Shown here: piece after piece, positions 8,757 through 22,267 of the stretch | How positions within the stretch are numbered: position 1 is the stretch's first letter | Layout of the letters: every line of letters starts with the position of its first letter | Assembly: GCA_026625185.1 (NCBI GenBank) | Contig: CP113000.1 | Span: 2,115,622-2,147,621, forward strand | Reading direction: 5' to 3' | Length of the DNA stretch: 32,000 bases | Source: Thermodesulfobacteriota bacterium | GTDB lineage: Bacteria > Desulfobacterota > WTBG01 > JAGOGO01 | Notes under the pieces: generated by a model | The model's database searches: none | What the model was told of the DNA's origin: nothing | What the model saw: only the letters and a program-made list of their open reading frames with translations | Position numbers and translations under genes: made by a program

Positions 8757-9266
8757 TTAACCCTTTACCCTTAACCCTTGTGCTTCGCGTAGCTCATATT
8801 CAAACTTCTCCTTCGGCTTCTTATCCCCGCCGATCGCGATAATTTTCTCAATCGGCCATTTTTCTACCATCTCCCGGTCAACGCTTTTGGCGATTTTAAT
8901 CGCCTCATTCCAACCCAGGCTTTCTATTGCTTCCACCGCGTTCTTCGGGAGCGACAGCCTCGCCTCGGTCGTATGTATCACTATGCCGTGGGGCAGGGTG
9001 ACCTTTTCGGCTTTATTGAACAGTTCGGCCTTGTTTTTTTTCAGGCAGGTGATAAGCGTTTTCTCATCCATTGCCAGCGTTTCCTGGAGAGTCTCTATTT
9101 TTGCCTGATATTGTTTTCTGATCTCAGCAATTTGTTTTTCAACGTCCGCCTCGATGCGGGCTATACGTTTGACCAGATCACCGATATAGTAGAGGTGATC
9201 ATCTATCTCATCATGCAATACTTTTTGCTCATTGCTCATTGCTCTTAGCTCTTTAGGCAGCGTCAT
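8757..9266 (-). CDS. gam: Mu Gam-like host-nuclease inhibitor
   Basis: 169 aa. N-terminal coiled coil (IGDLVKRIARIEADVEKQIAEIRKQYQAKIETLQ), then a VTLPHGIVIHTTEARLSLP segment, which is the Gam family pattern. The position matches the Mu early region. An alternative start exists at 9239. Confidence 0.7.
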   Translation of the reverse strand: MTLPKELRAMSNEQKVLHDEIDDHLYYIGDLVKRIARIEADVEKQIAEIRKQYQAKIETLQETLAMDEKTLITCLKKNKAELFNKAEKVTLPHGIVIHTTEARLSLPKNAVEAIESLGWNEAIKIAKSVDREMVEKWPIEKIIAIGGDKKPKEKFEYELREAQGLRVKG

Positions 9267-9660
9267 GTTTACCCTCTTTCAGATTAAGCGACATCTGACC
9301 CAGCATCTCCGCCAGACTTACTTTTTGTATTTTTGCTGCCTGTGCCAAAATTTTCAGGCCGTGCCGTTTCTTTTTTTCCAGAAAGTTTGCCAGCTCTGAA
9401 CCAACACTCGCCAGATAATACCCGCCGCCATCCTTCGATGATACCGAGCAGATCGGCACGCCATCCCAGCGCAGTTCAGTGATCAATCTGCGCAGCAGCC
9501 GGGTGTCGTTGATCCGGTTATTCCACCCTTCCTTAAAGACTTCCTCATGCAGCTCGCCCATGCCGATCGCCTTCTCCACTCCGATGTGGTTTTTCGTAAG
9601 CTCGACCAGGATGCGTTGTTTATAAAATTCTTTATCTTCCTGACTTATCGGCGGCTTCAT
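9253..9660 (-). CDS. winged-helix-like phage early protein
   Basis: 135 aa. RLLRRLITELRWDGVPICSVSSKDGGGYYLA resembles a wHTH recognition helix plus wing. No family assigned. Confidence 0.5.
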   Translation of the reverse strand: MKPPISQEDKEFYKQRILVELTKNHIGVEKAIGMGELHEEVFKEGWNNRINDTRLLRRLITELRWDGVPICSVSSKDGGGYYLASVGSELANFLEKKKRHGLKILAQAAKIQKVSLAEMLGQMSLNLKEGKHDAA

Positions 9661-9777
9661 GGGTTGCCTCCTTGTGTTTTGGCCTGCTCTTTCGGAAACC
9701 TCAATTTATACCAGCAACTTACACAAACCCTTTTTTCTCTGTATTTCATGAGGTTATGGGCTTCTTTCCCGCACTCC

Positions 9778-10212
9778 TCACATTCCTTGCTGAATAAGTC
9801 TTTTTGCTTCATTCTTTTCGCCTTCGCTGATTTTCATTATCACCGCGATGAGTCGCTCCAATGTGACCACACTGCGGCACCAGTCGAGCCGCTCGACCCC
9901 GCATATTTTTTTAACCAATCCGGCAAGCCGATTTTCTCCGTTCTGTATTTTTGTGGTTTCATCCAGTACCCGTTGTCGTAAAGCCTTTATCTGCGCGTTC
10001 GGCTTAGATTGCCATCCCAAGAATTTAAAAAATTTGATTAGCTTTTCGAGGTCTTCAAATCTCAGATCTGCCGCGGTTGTAACGCTGAACCCTTCAAGGA
10101 TCGCGTCATACTCGTGCTCTTTAAGCCCCAGCTCTTTTTTCGCGATGTGCACCTTCGCCAGCATCGCCCGCCGAATCCTCGGATTTTGTATTGTTTTTTT
10201 CGACTTTTTCAT
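9778..10212 (-). CDS. gemA: GemA / Mu gp16-like regulatory protein (DUF1018)
   Basis: RRAMLAKVHIAKKELGLKEHEYDAILEGFSVTTAADL matches the gp16/GemA N-terminal signature. Confidence 0.8.
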   Translation of the reverse strand: MKKSKKTIQNPRIRRAMLAKVHIAKKELGLKEHEYDAILEGFSVTTAADLRFEDLEKLIKFFKFLGWQSKPNAQIKALRQRVLDETTKIQNGENRLAGLVKKICGVERLDWCRSVVTLERLIAVIMKISEGEKNEAKRLIQQGM

Positions 10213-10260
10213 CTCACCCTTGAACCCTTAAACTCTTGAACCCTTGAACCTTTCTTATAA
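10213..10260 (-). repeat. tandem octamer array (TGAACCCT on the plus strand, 6 units) abutting the gemA start
   Basis: ctcaccct tgaaccct taaactct tgaaccct tgaacctt tcttataa, immediately 5' of ATG 10212 on the sense strand. Confidence 0.8.
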
Positions 10261-10713
10261 TATTTCCATCCGATATTTATCCCGGCTCGTTACAGCGTAA
10301 ACATGTTCGGTGCCCATGCCGGTTTTGCGTCTTCCAGCCCTGTTTAAATATCCGCTCCGATACAGGCGGGTGATAATTTTGGTCACGTAGCTTTTCTCGG
10401 GCGCGCCGGAAATGCGTTGAATATCCGATACCGTAAACCGGCTGATTGACACGTAGATGGCCTTTAAAATTTTTTGTCGGATGCCGTCCTGGTATCCCGG
10501 TTTCCATTTGTGGTTGTAACGATAAATGTCCGCATCTGGGTCGGTGATAACCTCACCGCGCTCGATAAAATCTTTGAGCGCGGCATACACTTTGATGCGA
10601 TCCGGCCCCACCGGGATATCAAGCCCTGTGTAAATCGACTCCCTTGTAAAAAATGGGCGTTTTTGTTCTCTCATCCACGCGCGCATTTGTTTTGCCAGTC
10701 CGGTTTTTTTCAT
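10255..10713 (-). CDS. winged-helix DNA-binding phage early protein
   Basis: 152 aa. FTVSDIQRISGAPEKSYVTKIITRLYRSGYLNRAG has a MarR-like wHTH pattern. ATGA-type overlap with the MuB-like gene (10710-10713). Confidence 0.5.
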   Translation of the reverse strand: MKKTGLAKQMRAWMREQKRPFFTRESIYTGLDIPVGPDRIKVYAALKDFIERGEVITDPDADIYRYNHKWKPGYQDGIRQKILKAIYVSISRFTVSDIQRISGAPEKSYVTKIITRLYRSGYLNRAGRRKTGMGTEHVYAVTSRDKYRMEIL

Positions 10714-11399
10714 TTTGTGCCCGTTATTTCTTTTACCAGGTCAAGGCTCACCTCGGTTAATCCGCTCGCCCGCATCGCCCGCTCAATCGTGATTGACGCG
10801 GTCAGCACTGGTCTCCAGTCACCGTTTGAGTGCTTATGGAGCGCGGTTACAACCTCCGGAGCCGGTTTGATCTCCAGGGCTTTTCGCAAAAAAAGCACAA
10901 TGTCCGGCTGGGTAAGCGGCGAGAATCCCATCCTCCTCCGTATTCGGGAGGAGAGACGCCGACGGCTCTCGATTTTTCCTTTCATTCCTTCTTCTCCGAT
11001 CAGCAGCACCGGGCAGGAGTAGCGTTCATTGAGGTTGCGCAGCATCTCCAAAACCTGCATGGCGAGCAAATCCGCTTCGTCAATGATGATCAGCCGCCGG
11101 TCTTTTGCCATCTCGTCGCCGATAATGGTGAGGCAGGTCTCGGACCGGCCCGGGCGCACCGTGCAAAGCTCAAAAGTGATCTCCCGCAGGAGCATCGGGG
11201 CGCTCCGGATATTGAGCGGAGGCAGATAAATCGCGGTTCCCCTCGCGGCGTATTGTTTCGCGGCCTCGGATTTACCTCTGCCTGCCGGGCCGGTGACCAT
11301 CGCGAGCGACGGCCCGATCAGGCTTTGCGGGTCTTCGAGTTCCGCGCAGATGTCGTTAAATTTGGTAATATTTTGCGTCTGGATAAATTCATTTTTCAT
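10710..11399 (-). CDS. MuB-like AAA+ ATPase (transposition target-DNA activator)
   Basis: Walker A VTGPAGRGKSEAAK, Walker B LIIIDEADLL. It lies immediately downstream of the transposase. Confidence 0.85.
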   Translation of the reverse strand: MKNEFIQTQNITKFNDICAELEDPQSLIGPSLAMVTGPAGRGKSEAAKQYAARGTAIYLPPLNIRSAPMLLREITFELCTVRPGRSETCLTIIGDEMAKDRRLIIIDEADLLAMQVLEMLRNLNERYSCPVLLIGEEGMKGKIESRRRLSSRIRRRMGFSPLTQPDIVLFLRKALEIKPAPEVVTALHKHSNGDWRPVLTASITIERAMRASGLTEVSLDLVKEITGTK

Positions 11400-11409
11400 T
11401 GCTCCTCCT

Positions 11410-11451
11410 TGCTGTTTGCTCTCTTTGCTCTTAGCTCTTTGCTCTTTGCGC
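11410..11451 (-). repeat. tandem heptamer array (GCAAAGA on the sense strand, ~6 units) between the transposase and the MuB-like gene
   Basis: Plus strand: tgctgtt tgctctc tttgctc ttagctc tttgctc tttgcgc. AAGGAGG plus ATG 11399 follows on the sense strand. Confidence 0.8.
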
Positions 11452-13673
11452 TACAACCCCATCTCCCTTGCTACCTCCCAGTACTCCCGCTGATCCGCAG
11501 GCATTGCTGCCTCGTGCATCTCCATCCACTCTCTGTCCTCCGCGGTCAGTTCCCCGCCTGCTTTTTGATATTTGAAACACCACTCATGTCTTTCCAATTC
11601 CGACAAAAAGTATTTCGGTCTCGGAGGCAGCGGTTTTTTGCGGATTTGCATCTCCGCGGCCTGTGTTGTTTCTTCGAGCGCGGCAACTTCCGCCTCCATC
11701 TCATCAGGCGTGCGCTGCCGATAGAGTTCGGTCTGCGCGGCAACCTTTTTGCGCCGTTCATCACCGACTATGGCCGCGGCTTTTTCAAGCGCCGGGACGT
11801 TGGAGTATTTTCTAAAATCCGGTACCCGTGAGGTAAGCTCGTGGTATTTTTGAGAGAATTCTTTGCGCCGTTTTGCTTTTTCTTCGATTTTTCGCTCCGC
11901 TAATTCATGGTCTTTCATTGAGGAGTACTCGACCAGTTCGGCGCTGGAAACAAATTCTCCCTGATAAAAAACCAGGATGTCGTCCGGATCCACCGGGTCG
12001 TATCGGAGATCAACCGAATTTCCGTGAAACGGAATTAACGCGTCACTTTCATATTGTTTTCCCTGGAAGGTGATCCGGCCCCGGTCAACTTTGCGGCTCG
12101 CGCGGGGGAGAAAGAGTATGTTAATCGCGTCGTCTGATAATTTTACCGGCCGCCAGCTCTCGTGCAGATAGCACGCTTCAAGGCATTGGATCGGAGTCGC
12201 GCTTTTTGGTTTCGGTTGACCACGCCATTCTTTGAGCACGCCTCGATGCGTCTTTTCCCGGTTGTAATAATCGGCGGCCAGGTACATGGCCAGGACAAAC
12301 TCTCTGTAGGTAGTGAGCTTGCCGGATCTGGCCAGGCTCTCGATTTCTTTCTGGTCAATATCCTGATGCTCGCTCGGAGCGGTGAGTCGTTTGACATTTC
12401 CGGGCAGGAGGAAGCGGTTCCGCATGATGCCTTCTAAAACATTGTTTGTGCCCTCGATCATTTTCGCTTTCGCGTTTTTTACGATCGCCCTCCGGTGTTC
12501 GCCGGGCATGACAAACGCGGGCATGATCTCCTCCGGGTCCTGGCCGTTAAGATCGATGGGGTAATCAATTTCTCTCTCGACCGAAAGCCCCAGCGCTCGC
12601 ATGTCCTTCATAATACCTATGATGTAGCGGGAGTTTTCCGGTTTGCCGTTATCGGTATAGATATTTTTAAAAGCGCCGAAACACCGGATGCCGATGTGAA
12701 GCGCCATACCCATGAGCGCGGCGTCATAGCGCCGGTCTATGGCGATGCCGTAAATAATGCGCGTGCGCAAGTCCTGCCACATGTAGCATTCCGGTCTGAA
12801 TACCTCGCCGGTCTCCTCATCAACCACCCAAAAATCGAAGCGATGCTGGTCGCCCACCAGGATTTCAAAAGGTTCGAGGTCGGAGTAATCGCGAAGGATC
12901 GGTGGAAGCGTGTTGTCAAGCGCTCTTAGGCCTCCTTTCTGCAGGGCTAAGAGCTGGGGGTTAAGCCTTTTTTTAAGCCACCAGAGGGCTGATTCGTATG
13001 AACCGGTCTGCCATGATCGATTGTGCGCCTCTATTTTGAGGCACTTAAAGAGAGAGTCTTTGGATATCTTGCGGTGCGACCGCTTTAATACCATGCCCAG
13101 CCAGAAGTCAACCGCTTCTGGCGTCCAGACTTTTGGGGTTTTTCGGGTAGATTTCCGGTGAGTTAATCCTACGAGGCCCTGGGAATTATATTTCTTTAAC
13201 TTCTTATATATAGTTCTCCAGTCAACCTCGTGGCGTAGAGCCACGTTTTCTATCCAGGCGCGTTTTTTCCAGCCTGCGGGAGCGCGTTCGGCTTCCTGGA
13301 TAATGCGCACCCAGCGGGTAAATTTTTTATTCTTGAGGTCCTTTTCCGAGATGGAGTGTTCGGTGGTTTGAATCCGTGTGTCCCGGATGCCGGCAAGGCT
13401 CGTGTCCGGAAAATCGGTAAGCTTTCTTAACGCTATCAGCGCCGCTTCCGGCGCCAGCACGGGAAGCATCTCGGCTGAGGTCGGGGTTGATTTTTCGGCA
13501 ATTTTTTTCTGGATATCGGAAGGGAGGGAGGAGAGGAGATAATGCTTTGTCTTTCCGCCGTTGCCGGCTTCTGTTTTGTGCGGCCAGGCTTCTTTTTGTG
13601 CGCGCCGCATAATCGTGGTTTTGTTAAGTCCGGTGGTCTCCGCAAGCTTTTTGGCTGTATATGCAGATTTCAT
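11451..13673 (-). CDS. MuA-like DDE transposase
   Basis: 740 aa. N-terminal HTH (AKKLAETTGLNKTTIMRRAQKE). Candidate DDE triad contexts are VGDQHRFDFWVVD, IYTDNGKPENS and AKAKMIEGT. The long C-terminal region is typical of Mu-type transposases. Confidence 0.9.
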   Translation of the reverse strand: MKSAYTAKKLAETTGLNKTTIMRRAQKEAWPHKTEAGNGGKTKHYLLSSLPSDIQKKIAEKSTPTSAEMLPVLAPEAALIALRKLTDFPDTSLAGIRDTRIQTTEHSISEKDLKNKKFTRWVRIIQEAERAPAGWKKRAWIENVALRHEVDWRTIYKKLKKYNSQGLVGLTHRKSTRKTPKVWTPEAVDFWLGMVLKRSHRKISKDSLFKCLKIEAHNRSWQTGSYESALWWLKKRLNPQLLALQKGGLRALDNTLPPILRDYSDLEPFEILVGDQHRFDFWVVDEETGEVFRPECYMWQDLRTRIIYGIAIDRRYDAALMGMALHIGIRCFGAFKNIYTDNGKPENSRYIIGIMKDMRALGLSVEREIDYPIDLNGQDPEEIMPAFVMPGEHRRAIVKNAKAKMIEGTNNVLEGIMRNRFLLPGNVKRLTAPSEHQDIDQKEIESLARSGKLTTYREFVLAMYLAADYYNREKTHRGVLKEWRGQPKPKSATPIQCLEACYLHESWRPVKLSDDAINILFLPRASRKVDRGRITFQGKQYESDALIPFHGNSVDLRYDPVDPDDILVFYQGEFVSSAELVEYSSMKDHELAERKIEEKAKRRKEFSQKYHELTSRVPDFRKYSNVPALEKAAAIVGDERRKKVAAQTELYRQRTPDEMEAEVAALEETTQAAEMQIRKKPLPPRPKYFLSELERHEWCFKYQKAGGELTAEDREWMEMHEAAMPADQREYWEVAREMGL

Positions 13674-13831
13674 TTCCCCTCGCTCGAAAGCAGGGTTTCT
13701 CTATTATTAATTATTATATACCCCAAAATCGCTATCGCCAAACCGGCAAAATTAACCAGCGGAAACCAGGCTCCGTCCGAACAGGCGATTATAAATCCGC
13801 ACCAGAATAATATTTCTGCGATAAATTTCAT
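13670..13831 (-). CDS. small hydrophobic protein (53 aa; below the ORF-track cutoff), translationally coupled to the transposase
   Basis: ATG 13831 sits right after a heptamer array. Translation MKFIAEILFWCGFIIACSDGAWFPLVNFAGLAIAILGYIIINNRETLLSSEGK. Its TGA overlaps the transposase ATG (ATGA at 13670-13673). Confidence 0.4.
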   Translation of the reverse strand: MKFIAEILFWCGFIIACSDGAWFPLVNFAGLAIAILGYIIINNRETLLSSEGK

Positions 13832-13880
13832 TTTTACCCTTAACCCTTTAACCTTGAACCTTTTACCTTTACCCTTTCAG
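13832..13880 (-). repeat. tandem heptamer array (7 units, CTTWAMC on the plus strand)
   Basis: ttttacc cttaacc ctttaac cttgaac cttttac ctttacc ctttcag. It spans the stop of 13869..14366 and ends at ATG 13831. Confidence 0.8.
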
Positions 13881-14366
13881 CTTGAGCTCCCGTTTTAGTT
13901 TCAACACCTCGGTTATGTGTTCCTCTATTTTTCCCAGGGCCAGCTCCCGTAATTCGCAGCCGGTGATGACCTTTGCGTCTTCAGCCGCGGCAAAAGATTT
14001 TGCTATTTCCAGGGATTCGGTGATTTGCTGAACCGCGTAGACTAAATAGGCCGGCATGGGGTATCGAGTTGGTTTCGATAAATAATGATTAAATATATGG
14101 GTAGAGAGGGGCTTTTTTGAGTCGCCGAAATACTGATTTATCGCGTCAACCATCTGATCCCGGCTTAGATTTTTAGCGCGCATTGATTTTTTTACCGATG
14201 CGGCAACCTCGATACAGGCCTCCTCATAGCTTTCAAACGCTTTTGCCGGCTGTTGTGTGGCGCAGGCTTTTAAAATTTCTTCCTTTGCCCGCTGGTAGGT
14301 TTCGATTTTTGCGGTAAAATCCAGGTCTTTTTGTCGTGAGTCTATAAAAATCTTCTTTTTAGACAT
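13869..14366 (-). CDS. hypothetical early-region protein
   Basis: 165-aa ORF between the ner-like gene and the transposase. No motif recognised. Confidence 0.5.
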   Translation of the reverse strand: MSKKKIFIDSRQKDLDFTAKIETYQRAKEEILKACATQQPAKAFESYEEACIEVAASVKKSMRAKNLSRDQMVDAINQYFGDSKKPLSTHIFNHYLSKPTRYPMPAYLVYAVQQITESLEIAKSFAAAEDAKVITGCELRELALGKIEEHITEVLKLKRELKLKG

Positions 14367-14400
14367 TGACTTATGCCTTTTTTTAGGCTAATTATTTAGC

Positions 14401-14640
14401 TTAAAATCCACTTGCCGTTTTTGAGGTGACGCGCTTTGCCGGGTGCGCGTAATACTCGGGAAAAACATCTATGGGGTGTTTATCGATTGCCTCGGCGATT
14501 TTTGTCATCACACGATGTGAAATTCTTTTTTTCAGAACGATGTCTGAAACCGTTATCGCGGAAACCCCGATCTCTTTTGCGAGCGCACTTTGGGTGATGC
14601 CTTTTTTCTTAAGCCTGGCTTGTATGTCTGCGGGATGCAT
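14401..14640 (-). CDS. ner: Ner-like HTH DNA-binding regulator
   Basis: 79 aa. IQARLKKKGITQSALAKEIGVSAITVSDIV...IAEAIDKHPIDVFPEYY parallels Mu Ner/Nlp (HTH followed by a xWPxRY-like tail). It is the first gene of the early operon. Confidence 0.75.
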   Translation of the reverse strand: MHPADIQARLKKKGITQSALAKEIGVSAITVSDIVLKKRISHRVMTKIAEAIDKHPIDVFPEYYAHPAKRVTSKTASGF

Positions 14641-14844
14641 GGTTGCTCCTTGGTTTTTTTTGTCTATTTTTTTGATGTTGGGGTGTAATTCTTATCCTTT
14701 TGAGCTTGTTTTTTAGACTTCGTATGTTTAAGACTTATAGACTAACAAAATAAGCATGTCAAGCATTTTTTTATGCAGCACCACTAAAAAACCTATTTTT
14801 TATTTATTATATGTAAGTATTTATATTTATAATAAAATTTAACT

Positions 14845-14894
14845 GCATCACCTTGCACCACCTCCGTGCACCACCTTTAAATCAATGGTGATGC
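14845..14894. promoter_or_regulatory. candidate operator cluster in the ner / c divergent control region
   Basis: TGCACCACCT occurs twice, 13 bp apart (14854-14863 and 14867-14876). The pair is bracketed by the inverted pair GCATCACC (14845-14852) / GGTGATGC (14887-14894). A related TGCAGCACCAC lies at 14774-14784. Confidence 0.4.
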
Positions 14895-15509
14895 GTGAAA
14901 AATCGCATGAATAATGAGTCTCTTTTAAAAGATCGAACCCGATGGGCAATAAATTATATTTGTAAAAAGGAGCGTTACTCGAATGAGTCGCTTGGAAATT
15001 TGCTTGATATTAATAAAAATACAGTCTCAAGTTACCGGTTAACATATACCGTCCCTAATATTGCTTTTGTTCTAAAGTTTTGTGATAAATTTGGATTTAA
15101 CTATGAGTGGTTTATTTTTGGTAAGGGCGAGCCGTTTCCAGGAGCGAGAGCTGAATTCCCGGAGGTTTGCGGGCCGGAGCAACGCCAGCCGGTGGAGCTG
15201 AAGGCTACAATAACAGGTGATCAGACGGCAAATTATACAATGCCAGGTGTCGATCAATTTGGTCAGGCGGTTTCTCAATTAAAAACGATATTCGACAACC
15301 GCGATCCGACGTTTATCCAGGCTATAATGGCCAACCTGAACACTTTTGGGCGGGCCATTGAAGAAAACCAGGAATTACGTAATAAAATCAATTCACTGGA
15401 AAAAAGAATAGCCGAATTAGAGGCGGGGGTACAAAGGGAGGGTGGGGACGTTCGAGGCGATACCTCTGTAGAAGGGACTGGCCGCTCTACCGAAAAGAAG
15501 GCCGGGTGA
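14895..15509 (+). CDS. c-like phage repressor (CI-repressor-type HTH)
   Basis: LGNLLDINKNTVSSYRLTYTVPNIAFVLKFCDKFGFNYEWFIFGKGEPF matches the Phage_CI_repr HTH, which ends in WLxxGxG. It is divergent from ner. The start is either GTG 14895 or ATG 14907. Confidence 0.7.
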   Translation: MKNRMNNESLLKDRTRWAINYICKKERYSNESLGNLLDINKNTVSSYRLTYTVPNIAFVLKFCDKFGFNYEWFIFGKGEPFPGARAEFPEVCGPEQRQPVELKATITGDQTANYTMPGVDQFGQAVSQLKTIFDNRDPTFIQAIMANLNTFGRAIEENQELRNKINSLEKRIAELEAGVQREGGDVRGDTSVEGTGRSTEKKAG

Positions 15510-15557: not shown

Positions 15558-16490
15558 GTGGTTAATAAAAAAAGGCTTTCTCCCATTTATTTGGATAAAA
15601 TAGATGCTTGTGAGGGGTCAAACATCGTCTATCTTCGGCCAAGTCGGAACCGTCGTCGTATAGTTTTTGGTTGGTATGGAGGAAAATTTAGTCATCTTGA
15701 GTGGCTACTGCCCTTACTACCACAATGTCATCACTATTGCGAGCCTTTCGCTGGGTCTGCTGCTGTTCTGTTGAACCGTGAACCTTCACCGGTTGAGACA
15801 TATAATGACATTGACGGAGACGTAGTTAACTTCTTTCGCGTACTGCGAGACCGCCGTGATGAAATCGTTAGGGCAATTGCTCTTACCCCCTTTTCCCGCG
15901 AGGAATACCATCTTGCTATTTACGGAAATACTAAAGCAATAACCGATGTAGAGCGAGCTCGACGCTTCTATATACGAGCCCGTCAAACACGAACGGGGCT
16001 TGCTCAAACTGCTTCGCTCGGTCGCTGGGCAAACTGCAAAAATACGAGCCGTGCCGGAATGTCTGGTGTGGTTTCCCGCTGGTTGGGTGGGGTTGATGCG
16101 CTGAATTTTATTGCGCAGCGTCTAATACGAGTCCAAATCGAAAACCGGCCAGCTGAGGATATGATTAGGCTTTACGATGCTAATAACACCTTGTTTTATT
16201 GCGATCCGCCCTATCTGCATGCTACACGTGGGGACTCAAAGGCTTATGGTTTTGAAATGGATGAGAGCCATCACCGAGAACTTGCCAAACTGCTAAATGA
16301 ATGCCGAGGAAAGGTGGCTCTGTCTGGTTACAACCACCCGCTTATGGATGACCTATACCCAAAGAAAAAATGGTTTAAAACAATGGGACCAGAAAAAACT
16401 ATTCATTCAACCAAGGGCACGAGATGTGAACTGCTCTGGACAAACTACGATCCCAACAAGGGAAGACAAAAAAAATTATTTGATAAATAA
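15558..16490 (+). CDS. Dam-family (D12 class) N6-adenine DNA methyltransferase
   Basis: FGWYGGK, the AdoMet motif EPFAGSAAVLLN and the catalytic FYCDPPYLHATRG (DPPY) appear in alpha-class order. GTG start with GGAGAG 5 nt upstream. Confidence 0.9.
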   Translation: MVNKKRLSPIYLDKIDACEGSNIVYLRPSRNRRRIVFGWYGGKFSHLEWLLPLLPQCHHYCEPFAGSAAVLLNREPSPVETYNDIDGDVVNFFRVLRDRRDEIVRAIALTPFSREEYHLAIYGNTKAITDVERARRFYIRARQTRTGLAQTASLGRWANCKNTSRAGMSGVVSRWLGGVDALNFIAQRLIRVQIENRPAEDMIRLYDANNTLFYCDPPYLHATRGDSKAYGFEMDESHHRELAKLLNECRGKVALSGYNHPLMDDLYPKKKWFKTMGPEKTIHSTKGTRCELLWTNYDPNKGRQKKLFDK

Positions 16491-16492
16491 AA

Positions 16493-17620
16493 ATGAAACC
16501 TACCCCAGAACAAATATTGGAGGAAATTTATAAGCGTGCCGAAAATTCGCGCAAAAAGTCTTTCATAACCGATGGGGTAATAAAAAAACAAATTGACTAT
16601 GTTTGCCATTGCACGAGTAACCGCGCCGGTGTTCGATTGTTAATGGCTTGTCTTTTAGGAAAATTAGATAATCCGAAAGTTGATCCCCGAATGCCCTATA
16701 CGGAGATCGGAACTAATGACTGTTTTTCGGGGCGCACCTATGATGAACGCTATATAACACACTTTATTAACGTGCACCGCTTGCCCTGCAATCCGACGAC
16801 CGCCTTTCTAACGCCTACCTTGCGTAATATAGACCGTCCTCTTAAAACTGATACTGAGCTTGTGGGAAGACCGCGAGAACTTTACAAAACTACTCTCCAA
16901 TTATTGGAGGAAGTTGCCAAGAACCGTATTAGCGCCGACATTGTTTTTATTGAAGTTGTGCGTATATTACTAAATGCCCGCGACGAAAAGTTAAACCGCA
17001 TAGCTTCGCTTCTCAAATCCATTAAACGTGGGGAGGGAGCCTTGCCGCTCTCGTCTGAGACAATCGTTACACTAATCGAGCAACATCTGGCTTGTAAAAA
17101 ATCAAGCCGTCTTCCGGTATTGGTAGTAGCTGCTGCGTATCAGGTTGCCGGGAAACGAATAGGGGAGCGCGTTTTGCCGCTCAACTCTCATAATGCCGCT
17201 GACTTACAAACTGGCTCTATCGGTGACGTGGAGGTTTGTCTTGTTGGAGATGATAACGTCGTTACCGCTTACGAAATGAAGATGAAAAGGGTAACGATAG
17301 ATGATATAGACGGAGCAATAAATAAAATCGTTAAAGCATCACAAAGGATTCATAATTATATCTTTATAACTACCGAAAAGATTGACCCAGAAACAGCCGA
17401 ATATGCTTTAAAATTTTATGAGGAAACAGGGGGAATTGAGATCGTCATACTTGATTGTATCGGCTTTTTAAGACATTTTTTGCATCTATTCCACCGGCTT
17501 CGTACAGATTATTTAAATACTTATCAGACTCTTGTGTTGGAGGAGCCTGATTCGGCAGTTAGTCAGTCTCTAAAAGAGGCTTTTCTTGCTTTAAGGCAGT
17601 CTGCTGAGAGTGGTGAATAA
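16493..17620 (+). CDS. putative type II restriction endonuclease (PD-(D/E)xK)
   Basis: It starts 2 nt after the methyltransferase stop. The core SHNAADLQTGSIGD245VEVCLVGDDNVVTAYE261MK263 gives D-x15-ExK. Confidence 0.6.
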   Translation: MKPTPEQILEEIYKRAENSRKKSFITDGVIKKQIDYVCHCTSNRAGVRLLMACLLGKLDNPKVDPRMPYTEIGTNDCFSGRTYDERYITHFINVHRLPCNPTTAFLTPTLRNIDRPLKTDTELVGRPRELYKTTLQLLEEVAKNRISADIVFIEVVRILLNARDEKLNRIASLLKSIKRGEGALPLSSETIVTLIEQHLACKKSSRLPVLVVAAAYQVAGKRIGERVLPLNSHNAADLQTGSIGDVEVCLVGDDNVVTAYEMKMKRVTIDDIDGAINKIVKASQRIHNYIFITTEKIDPETAEYALKFYEETGGIEIVILDCIGFLRHFLHLFHRLRTDYLNTYQTLVLEEPDSAVSQSLKEAFLALRQSAESGE

Positions 17621-17750: not shown

Positions 17751-18305
17751 ATGAAGACTAAAAAGGGAAAGAAGGACGTTCTCGATCTCAAGGGTGACAT
17801 GCGAGTGGTGAAGAGACTTCTTCAACTATATGACGCATGTTTGAAAAATGCGGAGGCTCTCTTATCCGAAGCAGATTTACTCTTCAAGAAAGGCCACCAC
17901 CCAAGGGCGTTTACTCTTGCCCACACTGGCTGGGAAGAGACTGGAAAGTCCCAACTCGTGGCCGACTTCTTGAACCAAATGGTTTCCCCAGTGGAGTTCG
18001 AGGCCGCCTTCAAGGATCACAAACTGAAATCTGCATATAACTGGAGACGGTTTGTTTGGAACTTTGCCAACATCGCTGACTCCACAATTGAATACGACCG
18101 TAACAAAACGACAGCGGGTCTGCAAAAACGTCACTCATCACTTTACGTTGGGAAAAACACCGATTTTAGCCCTATTGCACCTGAGAGTCAGGTTAGTAAA
18201 GAGGAAGCACATACGGTCATCGAAGCTCTACGGAACGAGATTAAGAAGATAAACTTGTACGATGCAATCACTGAACGAGTCGGTTCAAAGTCTTTTCTGA
18301 AGTGA
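17751..18305 (+). CDS. AbiV-like abortive infection protein
   Basis: LYDACLKNAEALLSEADLLFKKGHHPRAFTLAHTGWEETGKSQLV follows the AbiV family N-terminal helix pattern (NAxxLLxDAxxLxxxGxYxxAxxLxxxxxEExGK), as I recall it. Confidence 0.6.
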   Translation: MKTKKGKKDVLDLKGDMRVVKRLLQLYDACLKNAEALLSEADLLFKKGHHPRAFTLAHTGWEETGKSQLVADFLNQMVSPVEFEAAFKDHKLKSAYNWRRFVWNFANIADSTIEYDRNKTTAGLQKRHSSLYVGKNTDFSPIAPESQVSKEEAHTVIEALRNEIKKINLYDAITERVGSKSFLK

Positions 18306-18497
18306 GGCGGCCCTATGCTGGCCGCAACCAACACGAAACAAGAATATAGGCCAGTCGGAGGAAGGCTATAGAAAACAGACGTATGGGAAAACGGGGACGT
18401 CACTAAAATTATAAAATTCTTAACAACGGGGTCTTATACGGATCAATATAAATATTTTTTGAATTGAAGTACTGGTTTGGAGGACAGGAGGAAGTAT

Positions 18498-19016
18498 ATG
18501 CTCAACCTCAGTGATCTTACCAACGGCTTGCCTGCTATTACACCAGCATTCGGCCAATACCTGGCCGAGGCAGGGGCTGTGTGCTTAGAATCTCAAGGAC
18601 ATTCCAAGGGTCAAGGGCTTTCCGTGCAAGGAATACATTCGCAATTCTACTCTCTCTACTGGCCCAATATTACGGATCAGATGGAAAGATGCCTTAACGA
18701 TCCCGATGTCGCGACGGAGCACGGGGCAGTTGGAATAGCGGTCCTACTTATAAAGCGTTTGATAGGTTATGCGGTAATAGAGCGGTCACGAAAGGGAACG
18801 GGCTTCGACTATTGGCTTGGAGACGAAGCAGATATGCCTTTCCAGAATAAGGCAAGACTCGAGGTTTCTGGTATTAGAAATGGAGACCAAAAAACCGTCA
18901 ACGCTCGTGTTCGACAGAAACTGACGCAGACTGAGGTATCCGACAAAATGAGGTTACCGGCCTATATTGTGGTTGTTGAGTTTGGCCGACCTCTTGCTGA
19001 AGTGAGGCAACGATGA
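18498..19016 (+). CDS. hypothetical protein with a PD-(D/E)xK-like (restriction endonuclease fold) motif pattern
   Basis: AGGAGG at 18486-18491, then ATG 18498 (the track ORF begins at TTG 18477). E81...GFD111YWLG...RLE129VS131G, using track numbering. Confidence 0.7.
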   Translation: MLNLSDLTNGLPAITPAFGQYLAEAGAVCLESQGHSKGQGLSVQGIHSQFYSLYWPNITDQMERCLNDPDVATEHGAVGIAVLLIKRLIGYAVIERSRKGTGFDYWLGDEADMPFQNKARLEVSGIRNGDQKTVNARVRQKLTQTEVSDKMRLPAYIVVVEFGRPLAEVRQR

Positions 19017-20128
19017 AGGACGCGAACGAACTCCACAATGAGTCTATGGACCGGGCTGAGTTAGCACTCTTGGCCCGTATGAGGGGCGAACATGAGGAGG
19101 CAGAGCGTCTATTCACAGAATCCCTTCAGCTTGAAATGGAAGCAATTGAGGTAGTTGATCAGTTGCCGTACGTTGAGCCGAATTACTCTATTCTCCACTG
19201 TAGCGCTGCCACACTTGCTCTTGATTGCAATGATTCGCGCCTCGCGGAAATGTTGATCAGCAAGGCTCTCGCCCACGATCCCCCCCCGCAGATAGCAGAC
19301 GAACTCCGGGACTTATTCGAACAAGTCCAGTTCCGCCGACATCTCCAGTTGCGTGGGATAACCCTGGCCGAGGACGAACTGCAGATGAGCTTGGCTGGCC
19401 AAGGAGTAGGCTTTGGCGTTGTCCATAGTGGTGAGTTTCTTCAAAGAATTGATGGCGCTTCGAAAATTATATATAGGATCGTGGAGCGCCGTCAGAATAA
19501 GCCTTTCCGAGAAAAAGGCCGTCTGGCGCGACTCATTAAGGACGACTATGAGCTCTTTCTGTCTGTTCCTCGCGCCGCGAGTTTTGCAGTTACACTAAAA
19601 TTGGGTCACCCGTCTAACCAGCCCAAATTGCCAGGTATTGCGGATGCGTTTGAAATCGTTAACGAATTTATGACCCTTATGGGTCTCGTCAATAAAGCCG
19701 ACTTCTCCGCAATCGAATCACGAATTCCTGATCCTGTTTATAGAACGAATTTCGTACAATTGGCTAAGCGGTTGGCTCCAGACGGGGATAACGTCAAGGT
19801 TGTTGGATTCACTTCGATTCACGAAGGGCGAGAAAGGTTTGTTGAAGTCACGCGGCCTAAAACCAAGATCATAACTCCTGAGCCGAGGTCCGTAGTGCAG
19901 GCTGAGTTGGTAGTTGTTCGAGGTGTGCTGCGATTTGCGGACGCCACTCACACAGACAGCGGGCATATCAAGATCGTCGACGAAGAGAGTAAGACTACTC
20001 ATCAAGTAAAGGTCCCGGAGGGCATGATGAACGACATCGTAAAACCACTGTGGGACACGACAGTGGTGATCAAGGGTAGACGGGAAGGGAATTACATTCT
20101 TCTTCAGGATATTATTGAAGAAGAATAG
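19013..20128 (+). CDS. hypothetical 371-aa protein (N-terminal TPR-like helices, remainder unassigned)
   Basis: ATGA overlap with the upstream gene (19013-19016). The frame is long and clean with balanced composition. No catalytic or NTP-binding motif recognised. Confidence 0.7.
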   Translation: MKDANELHNESMDRAELALLARMRGEHEEAERLFTESLQLEMEAIEVVDQLPYVEPNYSILHCSAATLALDCNDSRLAEMLISKALAHDPPPQIADELRDLFEQVQFRRHLQLRGITLAEDELQMSLAGQGVGFGVVHSGEFLQRIDGASKIIYRIVERRQNKPFREKGRLARLIKDDYELFLSVPRAASFAVTLKLGHPSNQPKLPGIADAFEIVNEFMTLMGLVNKADFSAIESRIPDPVYRTNFVQLAKRLAPDGDNVKVVGFTSIHEGRERFVEVTRPKTKIITPEPRSVVQAELVVVRGVLRFADATHTDSGHIKIVDEESKTTHQVKVPEGMMNDIVKPLWDTTVVIKGRREGNYILLQDIIEEE

Positions 20129-20215
20129 GTTCGAACCAGTCGCTGCACCGAATCGGCTGGAAACGGCGCCTACCTCCCGGTGAGCTTTCCGTTAAATTTT
20201 ATGATTATGAGTATT

Positions 20216-20236
20216 TTTTTAAACTACGTGCGGAGA
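20216..20236 (+). repeat. direct repeat copy 1 (tttttaaactacgtgcggaga)
   Basis: 19 of 21 nt match 21362-21382, with a 14-nt exact core aaactacgtgcgga. Statistical support is only marginal in AT-rich DNA. Confidence 0.35.
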
Positions 20237-20303
20237 TGTGATAATTTCTATAGTTAAAAGAAAAAAGTTGGGGAATAATTTCCGCAATTCTTAGGTCTGG
20301 GGT

Positions 20304-20489
20304 TTATTTTTTGTCCAATCCAGTCCCTTCGTTTTCTTTTTGTTGATTTAAAGGATTTACCTCGTTGGAAATATTATTATTTTGAGATAATATAAGACAT
20401 CCAGGAATGGAAAAACACTGAACTGCAAAATCTCTCTCTGCCTCCAACCAGGCCGTTTTATAGTCATCGGGATATAATCTGGTGTACAT
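20304..20489 (-). CDS. hypothetical 61-aa protein, operon partner of the Ntn hydrolase
   Basis: Strong RBS AAGGAGGG 6-7 nt before ATG 20489. It starts 19 nt after the upstream stop. Confidence 0.55.
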   Translation of the reverse strand: MYTRLYPDDYKTAWLEAERDFAVQCFSIPGCLILSQNNNISNEVNPLNQQKENEGTGLDKK

Positions 20490-20508
20490 AAAAAGACCCT
20501 CCTTTTAC

Positions 20509-21180
20509 CTAAATTTCAATAGTTTTTGTAATGTTACCCACACCAGGAGCTACTTCGCTACGTTTTTTTGCCTTTTCGATAAAATCTTTTACCGCTTCTT
20601 TACTAAGTGATTTTTTATAATCGGCTTCGATAAGTGAATATAAAGCATGAGGTCCACCGGACCCGATGGCAACAAAACCGATCGGATCATGGCATATCAT
20701 ATCACCGGGGTTTATGACTGTGTAAATATGACAAGCAGAATCGTCTTTTCCCGCCAGAATAAATTCAACTCCAGCGTTATATTTTATAAATGCTTGGTCA
20801 ATAATTTGAACAAGGCTTGGAAAGAGTTTTTGCTGTAAAGTTAAATAAGAATTTAAATCCAGTCCCCGTGGTTCTAATTCATTTCTGATGATGCGAAGTT
20901 TCCGAACCAACTGGTATGATTCTCTTAATATATCTGCTATCCGCTGTGTTGATTGAATGTTTTCAATGTTAACGCGCTGTTTTGTTATCTTTATAATTTC
21001 ATTAGCAAATAATACATCTCCAGCAATTAAAACCCAGGCGTTATCAGTAATCTTTACGATTTTATCTATTTCTTGATTTTCAAATTCATACCCAATCGGG
21101 AAATGAGCCGTAATCATTTGATCTGATGTAAGAATACACCCATTACCATTATCACATAAAGCAGCTATACATACGGTCAT
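20509..21180 (-). CDS. proteasome-type (T1 family, HslV/Anbu/BPH-like) Ntn hydrolase
   Basis: MTVCIAAL places Thr directly after the initiator Met. This is followed by LTSDQM, DKIVKITDN, LIAGDVLFA and VAIGSGGPHALYSL, in the order of the proteasome beta-subunit motifs. RBS AGGGAGGA. Confidence 0.65.
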   Translation of the reverse strand: MTVCIAALCDNGNGCILTSDQMITAHFPIGYEFENQEIDKIVKITDNAWVLIAGDVLFANEIIKITKQRVNIENIQSTQRIADILRESYQLVRKLRIIRNELEPRGLDLNSYLTLQQKLFPSLVQIIDQAFIKYNAGVEFILAGKDDSACHIYTVINPGDMICHDPIGFVAIGSGGPHALYSLIEADYKKSLSKEAVKDFIEKAKKRSEVAPGVGNITKTIEI

Positions 21181-21361
21181 TTTTATTCCTCCCTTGATTT
21201 TTTCTTTTTTCTTAAAATCTAATGTAATAATAAGTTCGTTTTTTTTAAAAAATCAATCTTTTTTTATAATATTATGGTTTTATAGAATGCAATTTTCACA
21301 CCATTAAAATTAAAATTATTCAACCACTGGTGTTTTTGGGTAAAAAATTCACCTTTAAAAT

Positions 21362-21382
21362 TTTTCAAACTACGTGCGGAAA
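21362..21382 (+). repeat. direct repeat copy 2 (ttttcaaactacgtgcggaaa)
   Basis: See 20216-20236. It is followed by ...gatttcattaCA at 21405-21416, which resembles a Mu-type TG/CA terminus read in reverse. Confidence 0.35.
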
Positions 21383-21571: not shown

Positions 21572-21874
21572 ATGGTTAAACGATTTGGTATCCTTGTAAT
21601 AATAGTTGCGGCAATAGCAGTCTTTTCCGGCTGCGCGTGCCAAAAAGACCTTTCGGCTGAGAACTGGGGACGGTCTTTTGAATTGGCCAAATATAACCAG
21701 TATCTGAATCCAGAAGCAGGAAAAAATCTGGAACCGGTTGAGGGCTTAAATGGATGGGCCGCTGATGCGGTTATGGCAGGGTACCAGGAATCTTTTAAAG
21801 GCGGCGGAAAAGGCCCACAGAGCGTCAATTTGAATCTGGGAAGCATTTCCGGCATCGGACAGGCAAAACAGTAA
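21572..21874 (+). CDS. small lipoprotein at the head of the tad cluster
   Basis: RBS AAGGAGG. Signal peptide with lipobox AVFSGC. 100 aa. Confidence 0.7.
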   Translation: MVKRFGILVIIVAAIAVFSGCACQKDLSAENWGRSFELAKYNQYLNPEAGKNLEPVEGLNGWAADAVMAGYQESFKGGGKGPQSVNLNLGSISGIGQAKQ

Positions 21875-21975
21875 ATGTAAAGGGTGAGGTGTAAAACGTA
21901 AGGTGTTACGATTTACACCTCACCCTTTACGATTAACGCTTTACGTGGGTGAAGAAGGTAAGGGGTAAAGACTTT
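21871..21975 (+). repeat. tandem heptamer array (~15 units) with internal dyad symmetry
   Basis: gtaaatg taaaggg tgaggtg taaaacg taaggtg ttacgat ttacacc tcaccct ttacgat taacgct ttacgtg ggtgaag aaggtaa ggggtaa. Confidence 0.8.
21877..21930 (+). terminator. 25-bp stem (one mismatch) hairpin after the lipoprotein gene
   Basis: gtaaagggtgaggtgtaaaacgtaa / ttacgatttacacctcaccctttac with loop ggtg. It is embedded in the heptamer array at 21871-21975. Confidence 0.6.
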
Positions 21976-22179: not shown

Positions 22180-22267
22180 CCTCTCCCCGCTGGGGAGAGG
22201 ATAGAGGTGAGGGGTAAAATAAATAAAGTTCCCCCTCACCCTGACCCTCTCCCCCGAGGGGAGAGGG
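22180..22267. repeat. MITE-like element: two inverted copies of the DUF559-associated terminal repeat with a 10-nt spacer
   Basis: cctctccccgctggggagagg-ata-gaggtgaggggta (22180-22216) faces the inverted copy ccccctcaccctgaccctctcccccgaggggagaggg (22231-22267). Confidence 0.75.

Follow-up and report, generated by a model that had tools for sequence, protein, structure and literature searches.

Within a 32,000-nucleotide (nt) stretch of the genome of a Thermodesulfobacteriota bacterium (GenBank assembly GCA_026625185.1, contig CP113000.1, positions 2,115,622 to 2,147,621), referred to here as the window, two overlapping genes lie on the forward strand downstream of an AbiV gene (Table 1). Gene 1 encodes a 172-amino-acid (aa) protein with the predicted fold of a PD-(D/E)xK nuclease, and gene 2 encodes a 371-aa partner that begins with a TPR-like helical domain and ends in an OB-fold-like barrel. 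An initial annotation, made from the sequence without database searches, had singled out the pair as a candidate defence or toxin/antitoxin-like module that could be matched to no named system. Comparison of the pair with its relatives leads us to favour, with moderate confidence, the view that its two genes make up a self-contained conflict module, spread by horizontal transfer, of the abortive-infection or toxin-antitoxin type.

The translation signals described in the initial annotation, namely the AGGAGG sequence, the ATG at 18498, the ATGA shared by the two genes and non-coding flanks of about 170-190 nt, were all recovered. Its residue assignments in gene 1 were also right, whereas the length was not, as it had numbered a 179-aa product starting at TTG 18477. 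This start belongs to a mechanically called open reading frame (ORF) only and was rejected. The homologues all start with MLNL or MLDL at the position of ATG 18498, and a length of 172 aa was also obtained by independent gene calling on two metagenome contigs with an identical gene 2 protein; the ATG at 18498 was therefore taken as the start. With the 172-aa product, the residues formerly numbered E81, D111, E129 and S131 become E74, D104, E122 and S124. A scan for sigma-70 promoters and terminators gave no convincing signal upstream of gene 1.

Conservation of the Gene Pair

Co-occurrence of the two genes in other genomes had been named as a check in the initial annotation, and it was found throughout. 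In all 79 informative species loci (of 80 collected, one that ends 163 nt past gene 1 was left out as uninformative), the gene immediately 3' of gene 1 encodes the N-terminal ~105-125 aa of gene 2, and the overlap between the two genes is exactly 4 nt in 73 of them. In addition, two natural fusions were observed, one joining gene 1 to a short gene 2 (P0315) and the other to a long gene 2 (P0390). Pairwise identities of gene 1 and of the N-terminal domain of gene 2, here called the adaptor, are strongly correlated (r = 0.88, Mantel p = 0.001), indicative of co-evolution, with gene 1 the better conserved partner in 82% of pairs. Judged from these sequence comparisons, the conservation of both gene order and residues is far beyond chance, and gene 1 and gene 2 constitute an obligate unit. 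Within gene 2, universality is limited to the first ~112 aa, the rest being swappable.

The variable part of gene 2 takes several forms. The adaptor stands alone (114-144 aa) in about 57 of the 79 loci, and the long form seen in the window (362-399 aa) is present in about 19. One locus encodes an adaptor joined to an HTH_3 domain (L007), and in a relative of it the helix-turn-helix (HTH) is a separate downstream gene (L005); three further loci carry other tails (L006, L030 and L060). On a plasmid of Hymenobacter radiodurans (NZ_CP037921.1, 5989-7424; L081), a gene 1 homologue of 40% identity overlaps by 4 nt a gene for a 301-aa partner, in which the first ~119 aa occupy the place of the adaptor and the remainder consists of a complete Bac_transf sugar-transferase domain (E 3e-52), apparently an unexpected enzymatic tail on the adaptor.

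No separate gene for the long-form tail was found in the short-form loci with a hidden Markov model (HMM) of gene 2 residues 112-371. Nor does the family as a whole share a third gene: the 141 immediate neighbours match 141 different Pfam families, none of which has more than 4 members among them. A three-gene variant is restricted to five short-form loci of Latescibacterota and Gemmatimonadota (L009, L011, L014, L015 and L018, at ~10920-11720), in which a gene of ~250 aa overlaps the stop of the short gene 2; its product has no Pfam or PADLOC match and no hhalign similarity to the long-form tail.

Fold and Conserved Residues of Gene 1

The AlphaFold model of gene 1 (predicted local distance difference test score, pLDDT, 90.7) displays the alpha-beta-beta-beta-alpha-beta core of PD-(D/E)xK nucleases, composed of helix 69-89, strands 92-96, 105-108 and 117-126, helix 131-147 and strand 155-161, preceded by an additional N-terminal subdomain at residues 1-65 that consists of a helix plus a hairpin. 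E74 is part of the first core helix, the second strand begins with D104, and E122-x-S124 is found within the third, with R137, K141 and Q144 on the helix that follows and E161 on the last strand. Conservation of these positions is nearly complete: D104, E122, R137, K141, Q144 and E161 are kept in 88 of 88 gene 1 sequences, E74 and S124 in 87 each, and the pattern persists down to 40% identity.

In Foldseek searches of the PDB, every match to gene 1 was a PD-(D/E)xK-type nuclease fold, all of them weak; they comprise tRNA-splicing endonuclease, the DREN nuclease of SPARDA (DUF4365), CinB, the Cas4-like ACE1, fusellovirus D212, cap-snatching endonucleases and MGME1. As the topology of the model and these matches agree, and as the E...D...ExS residues are conserved, the assignment of gene 1 to this fold in the initial annotation was upheld. 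The same annotation had remarked that a Ser sits where the Lys of the canonical ExK motif is expected, and this proved to hold across the family; the substitution is a family trait and no accident. R137, K141 and Q144 on the following helix may supply the function of the missing Lys. The substrate may be DNA or RNA: the top fold match is an RNA endonuclease, but the conserved acidic triad is of the metal-dependent PD-(D/E)xK type.

Domain Architecture of Gene 2

The AlphaFold model of gene 2 (pLDDT 79.6) has three parts. Residues 2-111 form five helices (pLDDT ~90), for which Foldseek returned the TPR domains of kinesin light chain (KLC), Sgt2 and Hip. The TPR-like stretch of ~100 aa proposed from the sequence is thus borne out at the level of structure, and the sequence-level signal is sub-threshold (best Pfam match TPR_2 at residues 16-41, E 0.037, 14.6 bits against a cut-off of 27). 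For the last ~270 aa, in which the initial annotation had recognised no motif, the outcome was divided. The alpha/beta middle domain (residues 122-290) indeed gave no domain-specific PDB match with Foldseek; together with the rest of the tail it occurs essentially only in the ~370-aa architecture, joined to the adaptor, in 425 proteins. Residues 299-369, in contrast, resemble an OB fold, with local matches to PolD DP1, the ExoVII large subunit, the anticodon-binding domains of AspRS and LysRS, and CusF/SilF, as well as viral matches to baculovirus LEF-3 and phage SSB; the probabilities reach 1.0, with E-values of only 0.02-0.3.

Family Size and Distribution

No model of Pfam, NCBIfam, PADLOC or PHROGs matches either protein, apart from the sub-threshold TPR signal in gene 2, and a PDB sequence search with both family profiles returned 0 matches at E<=10. 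The view that the pair belongs to no named system is therefore sustained for these collections. In the papers that we found on PDC-M02, DUF4365 and two-gene defence systems combining a nuclease with a TPR or OB partner, the pair is not described. The family is nevertheless large. Among clusters formed at 90% identity, 1790 relatives of gene 1 were counted. A profile search over 1.84 billion representatives gave 2080 clusters at the 50% identity level, of which 581 scored below E 1e-30; almost all members are stand-alone proteins with lengths of 170-190 aa. For gene 2, the full-length relatives number at least 471. In databases the relatives are all named 'hypothetical' or, once, 'TPR protein'.

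When one genome per species was scanned, relatives were present in 312 of 185,579 species (~0.17%) from more than 10 phyla. The carriers include many cyanobacteria, Latescibacterota, Dehalococcoidia/Chloroflexota, Acidobacteriota, Nitrospirales and Omnitrophota, as well as Brocadiaceae, Gemmatimonadota, Heliomicrobium and Desulfobacterota, and the pair closest to that of the window is found in a Syntrophus metagenome-assembled genome (MAG). Relatives are also carried by four megaplasmids, from cyanobacteria and Hymenobacter. Identities of 55-65% were observed across different phyla, which argues for horizontal transfer and strong constraint. A tblastn search of 50,697 GenBank phage records gave no real match, and six viral contigs of IMG/VR (20-79 kb) encode the long form of the pair, one of them with a terminase gene 2.7 kb away and another with a phage repressor directly upstream.

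Genomic Neighbourhood

In the window, the pair follows a type II restriction-modification (R-M) system, made up of a Dam/D12-class methylase and a SacI-like endonuclease, and an AbiV/HEPN gene, and this block adjoins the minus-strand early region of a Mu-like transposable prophage (8757-15509; Table 1). As the repressor-like gene of the prophage is only 48 nt from the methylase gene, the block of R-M, AbiV and pair genes may be prophage cargo, situated between the repressor and the prophage end, instead of host DNA.

Comparable surroundings were observed at other long-form loci. In the closest homologous pair (Syntrophus MAG, PNOF01000012.1; L085), the neighbours are an MNT gene, a gene for a 1370-aa protein (11170-15282) directly after the pair, and then Bro-N. 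The 1370-aa protein combines a PRTase at its N-terminus with a PNP_UDP_1 nucleosidase domain at its C-terminus and matches PADLOC PDC-M60C (E 8e-24) and 'PN-superfamily effector' (E 9e-22); it is probably another defence gene. Elsewhere the pair lies in an integrase island with SNase, NERD, patatin-iHKD and AEP genes (L087), next to HEPN-MNT genes (L094), with DRT UG13a (E 5e-186) and a transposase (L096), or with a retron type XI reverse transcriptase-protease (E 6e-171) and BrnT (L097). The defence-gene neighbourhood first noticed in the window thus extends to six of the eight long-form contexts, window included, in which defence or toxin/antitoxin genes adjoin the pair (a raw count with no background correction). 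In one of the remaining contexts, the pair stands alone between cobS and glnA (L086). The module behaves as an autonomous islet, often but not always among defence and toxin/antitoxin genes.

Table 1. Features of the gene pair and of its surroundings in the window (positions counted from the first nucleotide of the window; aa numbering of gene 1 refers to the 172-aa product).
Feature	Position	Strand	Basis or remark
Shine-Dalgarno AGGAGG	18486..18491	+	Sequence reading; 6 nt before gene 1 ATG
Gene 1, 172 aa, PD-(D/E)xK-fold nuclease-like protein	18498..19016	+	Proposed effector/toxin
Gene 1 codon E74	18717..18719	+
Gene 1 codon D104	18807..18809	+
Gene 1 codon E122	18861..18863	+
Gene 1 codon S124	18867..18869	+
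ATGA stop/start overlap, gene 1/gene 2	19013..19016	+	Sequence reading; translational coupling
Gene 2, 371-aa partner	19013..20128	+	Proposed antitoxin, sensor or targeting subunit
Gene 2 aa 1-111, five-helix TPR-like adaptor	19013..19345	+	AlphaFold, Foldseek
Gene 2 aa 122-290, alpha/beta middle domain	19376..19882	+	AlphaFold secondary structure; lower model confidence
Gene 2 aa 299-369, C-terminal OB-fold-like beta-barrel	19907..20119	+	Foldseek; putative nucleic-acid binding
Non-coding flank 5' of gene 1, 192 nt	18306..18497		After AbiV gene
Non-coding flank 3' of gene 2, 175 nt	20129..20303		Before next ORF
Dam/D12-class methylase	15558..16490		Type II R-M
SacI-like endonuclease	16493..17620		Type II R-M
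AbiV/HEPN	17751..18305
Gam	8757..9266	minus	Mu-like prophage
GemA	9778..10212	minus	Mu-like prophage
MuB/TniB-like AAA ATPase	10710..11399	minus	Mu-like prophage
MuA transposase	11451..13673	minus	Mu-like prophage
Ner-like HTH gene, 79 aa			Mu-like prophage early region
c-repressor-like gene, 204 aa	14895..15509		Mu-like prophage; divergent
Direct repeat, 20 nt, copy 1	20215..20234		Flanks AT-rich cassette
Direct repeat, 20 nt, copy 2	21361..21380		Flanks AT-rich cassette
AT-rich cassette	20215..21380 (with repeats)		GC content ~0.37-0.38
Proteasome-beta-like gene, 223 aa	20509..21180	minus	In AT-rich cassette
Imperfect palindrome 1	21860..21947		REP-like
Imperfect palindrome 2	22180..22266		REP-like

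Two further features lie downstream of the pair. The AT-rich cassette, which holds a 61-aa ORF and the proteasome-beta-like gene, is flanked by a 20-nt direct repeat, TTTTT[T/C]AAACTACGTGCGGA, whose copies are identical at 19 of 20 positions, and it looks like an insertion with duplicated ends. Between this cassette and Tad pilus genes are two imperfect palindromes with arms of 42 nt and 38 nt that are 81-82% complementary, both with a GGTGAGGGGTAA-type core.

Comparison with Known Systems

The best viral structural match of gene 2 was the BFVD model of Q6NE06, a 381-aa protein of Leptospira phage LE1 (Foldseek E 1e-6 over 335 columns, template-modelling score (TM) 0.37, root-mean-square deviation (rmsd) 15 A). 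We equated this protein with LE1-0037 solely as the only 381-aa coding sequence in the LE1 record. LE1-0037 matches PADLOC PDC-M02B (E 1e-64), and the gene directly before it, LE1-0038 (176 aa), matches Pfam DUF4365 and PADLOC PDC-M02A (E 8e-51); the two form a pair at 38735-40413 of this temperate phage (BX571876; L088/L104). Five plasmid homologues have the same layout of DUF4365 plus ~375 aa, often with a 4-nt overlap. In the PDC-M02 loci (L088-L093), the proteins are 168-184 aa and 366-381 aa long, compared with 172 and 371 aa in the window. PDC-M02 thus resembles the pair of the window in that a small PD-(D/E)xK gene is followed by a gene for a ~380-aa partner, often with the same overlap, and both families occur on prophages and plasmids. 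In addition, both window proteins may point by structure, independently, to PDC-M02 components, gene 1 through the match to DREN/DUF4365 and gene 2 through the match to LE1.

The two families also differ. An additional N-terminal subdomain is present in gene 1, which has ExS where PDC-M02A has QxK, and the TPR-like N-terminus of gene 2 is not seen in PDC-M02B sequences. None of the ~50 PDC-M02 HMMs of PADLOC matches gene 1 or gene 2 at E<=1. Alignments of PDC-M02A and PDC-M02B built from phage LE1 and the five plasmids gave hhalign probabilities of 0.3% for gene 1 against DUF4365 and 1-2% for gene 2 against PDC-M02B; a repeat under permissive settings, for which the gene 2 alignment had been enriched, was negative too. 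A 'GSF[GA][FV]' motif seen by eye in both families was dropped, as the alignments gave it no support. Because all sequence homology tests were negative, assignment to PDC-M02 was rejected; the models suggest a separate family that is structurally analogous to PDC-M02 and possibly very distantly related. Our literature search found no paper naming PDC-M02 and none reporting its experimental validation.

Phage LE1 also carries a second pair, at 71825-73540, in which LE1-0081 (174 aa, 'immunity region protein') and LE1-0080 (394 aa) lie beside the CI repressor.

The literature links DUF4365 to the DREN nuclease of SPARDA short-Argonaute systems. DREN shares the PD-(D/E)xK fold with gene 1 and ranks among its best structural matches (9qcc, 9jsz, 9vx6 and 9jt2, E 8e-3 to 0.3), but gene 1 is stand-alone, with no APAZ or Argonaute partner, and Pfam DUF4365 does not match it at E<=1. 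SPARDA is activated by filament assembly. The best PDB fold match of gene 1 is the tRNA-splicing endonuclease EndA/TSEN (7zrz, E 3e-3; 1a79, TM 0.40), which has a comparable size and a similar two-subdomain layout but aligns with an rmsd of 8-12 A and has no sequence similarity. Catalysis by EndA depends on a Tyr-His-Lys triad, not on the E/D/E set conserved in gene 1.

The pair also resembles toxin-first type II toxin/antitoxin systems such as HigBA, HicAB and BrnTA, in being a small, coupled and mobile pair with a less conserved partner, in having HTH-bearing partner variants and in a decay that spares the partner. The long gene 2, however, is far bigger than typical antitoxins, and we know of no toxin/antitoxin family with such a nuclease or with a TPR-like antitoxin.

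Proposed Function of the Module and Alternative Explanations

Two-gene nuclease-plus-partner conflict modules are already known as a kind, and the gene pairing, coupling, fold, residue conservation, modularity of gene 2 and genomic contexts observed here are consistent with a further member of that kind. We propose that gene 1 is a small metal-dependent PD-(D/E)xK nuclease with a non-canonical site (E74, D104 and E122-x-S124) that would act as the toxic effector, and that gene 2 would be synthesised in step with it through the ATGA coupling. The TPR-like N-terminal domain of gene 2 would bind gene 1 physically, either holding the nuclease inactive or directing it, and in the long form the alpha/beta and OB tail may bind a phage protein or a nucleic acid, for example single-stranded DNA or RNA. 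On infection, the nuclease would be freed or activated, with an anti-phage outcome.

The pattern of decay among the loci gives a hint in the same direction. Three loci retain an intact gene 2 next to a damaged gene 1, the damage consisting of two in-frame stops (L008, 2946-3473), a stop at codon 75 (L052, 90-611) or the substitution E74A (L065). The sole locus with a nonsense codon in gene 2, at position 53, is also the sole locus in which S124 is changed, to Pro (L017, 10001-11709), and no locus was found with a seemingly intact gene 1 and a broken gene 2. As far as the sequences tell, this fits what a toxin/antidote relation predicts.

Several points weigh against a conflict module of this kind. 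The decay pattern comes from four loci, mostly in MAGs, in which sequencing errors are possible. The fold matches of gene 1 in the PDB are weak (best E 3e-3, TM 0.36-0.40), and since the canonical Lys is missing, catalysis is not assured. Two of the eight long-form contexts (L086 and L095) have no defence-like neighbours, and the genes immediately flanking the pair (141 proteins from 75 species loci) are mixed and include many housekeeping genes, such as those for EF-G, malate synthase and alanine racemase. Profile comparisons with PDC-M02A/DUF4365 and PDC-M02B were negative, at hhalign probabilities of 0.3-2%. Moreover, the nuclease-first order is the rarer one among type II toxin/antitoxin pairs, and the short gene 2 has no DNA-binding domain for autoregulation.

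With these points in mind, other explanations were considered. A plain type II addiction module, with gene 1 as toxin and gene 2 as antitoxin, that stabilises mobile elements, prophages and islets and has no direct anti-phage role would account for a small coupled pair that is found on megaplasmids and prophages and scattered as a lone insertion even between housekeeping genes (L086), for HTH-bearing partners that resemble modular antitoxins and for the decay pattern, which is consistent with a toxin plus antidote. We judge it unlikely, as a 260-aa alpha/beta and OB module would be superfluous in a simple antitoxin and as retron, DRT, R-M and AbiV genes adjoin the pair in most long-form contexts; it also overlaps with a mobile abortive-infection module, because the boundary between toxin/antitoxin and abortive infection is blurred. 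The placement of the pair beside a repressor or near a terminase gene among the six IMG/VR contigs, and beside the early region of the Mu-like prophage in the window, suits instead a role for the mobile element or phage itself, whether as a DNA-processing nuclease with a single-strand-binding accessory in replication, recombination or packaging, or as an anti-defence or superinfection-exclusion factor. The likeness of the OB fold to SSB and LEF-3 and the analogous PDC-M02 pair within temperate phage LE1 point the same way. Yet phage genes are missing from the surroundings of most of the 312 genomic occurrences, the 50,697 GenBank phage records gave 0 matches, most family members have a partner without the OB module, and sites next to a prophage repressor typically hold accessory cargo and not the core functions of a phage, so that such a role seems distinctly unlikely.

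A lower probability still is given to gene 1 being an inactive PD-(D/E)xK scaffold or nucleic-acid binder, with the pair serving as a regulator or targeting complex for the C-terminal modules of gene 2 (OB, HTH or sugar transferase). The canonical Lys is gone in every member, the tails include HTH and an enzyme domain, and the top fold match, tRNA-splicing endonuclease, works by a different chemistry; but most partners have no tail to deliver, and the three acidic residues together with R137, K141 and Q144 are essentially invariant in 88 sequences down to 40% identity, which argues for a maintained active site. Least probable, and by our estimate very improbable, is a housekeeping pair for DNA repair or recombination, such as a resolvase-like nuclease plus an accessory protein. 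It would be in keeping with the nuclease and OB folds and with the core genes around some loci, but a presence in only ~0.17% of species genomes that is patchy over phyla, the horizontal transfer implied by 55-65% identity between phyla and the variable gene neighbourhoods all speak against it.

For the mobile conflict module that we favour, a broader and more tentative proposal can be made, which we regard as rather doubtful as a whole. PDC-M02 and the family of the window may have arisen as branches of a single, ancient and very widespread immune architecture, in which a DREN-like PD-(D/E)xK nuclease is gated by a dedicated partner. In the branch of the window, the partner would provide a TPR-like docking platform of ~110 aa with swapped sensor or targeting modules, whether an HTH, the alpha/beta and OB tail, a sugar transferase or no module at all. 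A long-form partner would recognise single-stranded nucleic acid of the phage by way of its OB domain, thereby unleashing the nuclease.

Significance

What is new here is the family itself, its putative ExS active site and an adaptor with swappable tails, for which no description was found in the literature searched. If the proposed role is correct, a function would be assigned to at least 2,000 sequence clusters that are invisible to Pfam, NCBIfam, PADLOC and PHROGs, and conflict systems would gain a nuclease effector whose active site is unusual in having ExS in place of ExK. At 1.65 kb and self-contained, the pair would be easy to test. The family would also represent a natural experiment in modular sensing, in which the same nuclease and docking domain are combined with different tails, and the PADLOC candidate PDC-M02 and the DREN nuclease of SPARDA would be tied into a broader structural class.

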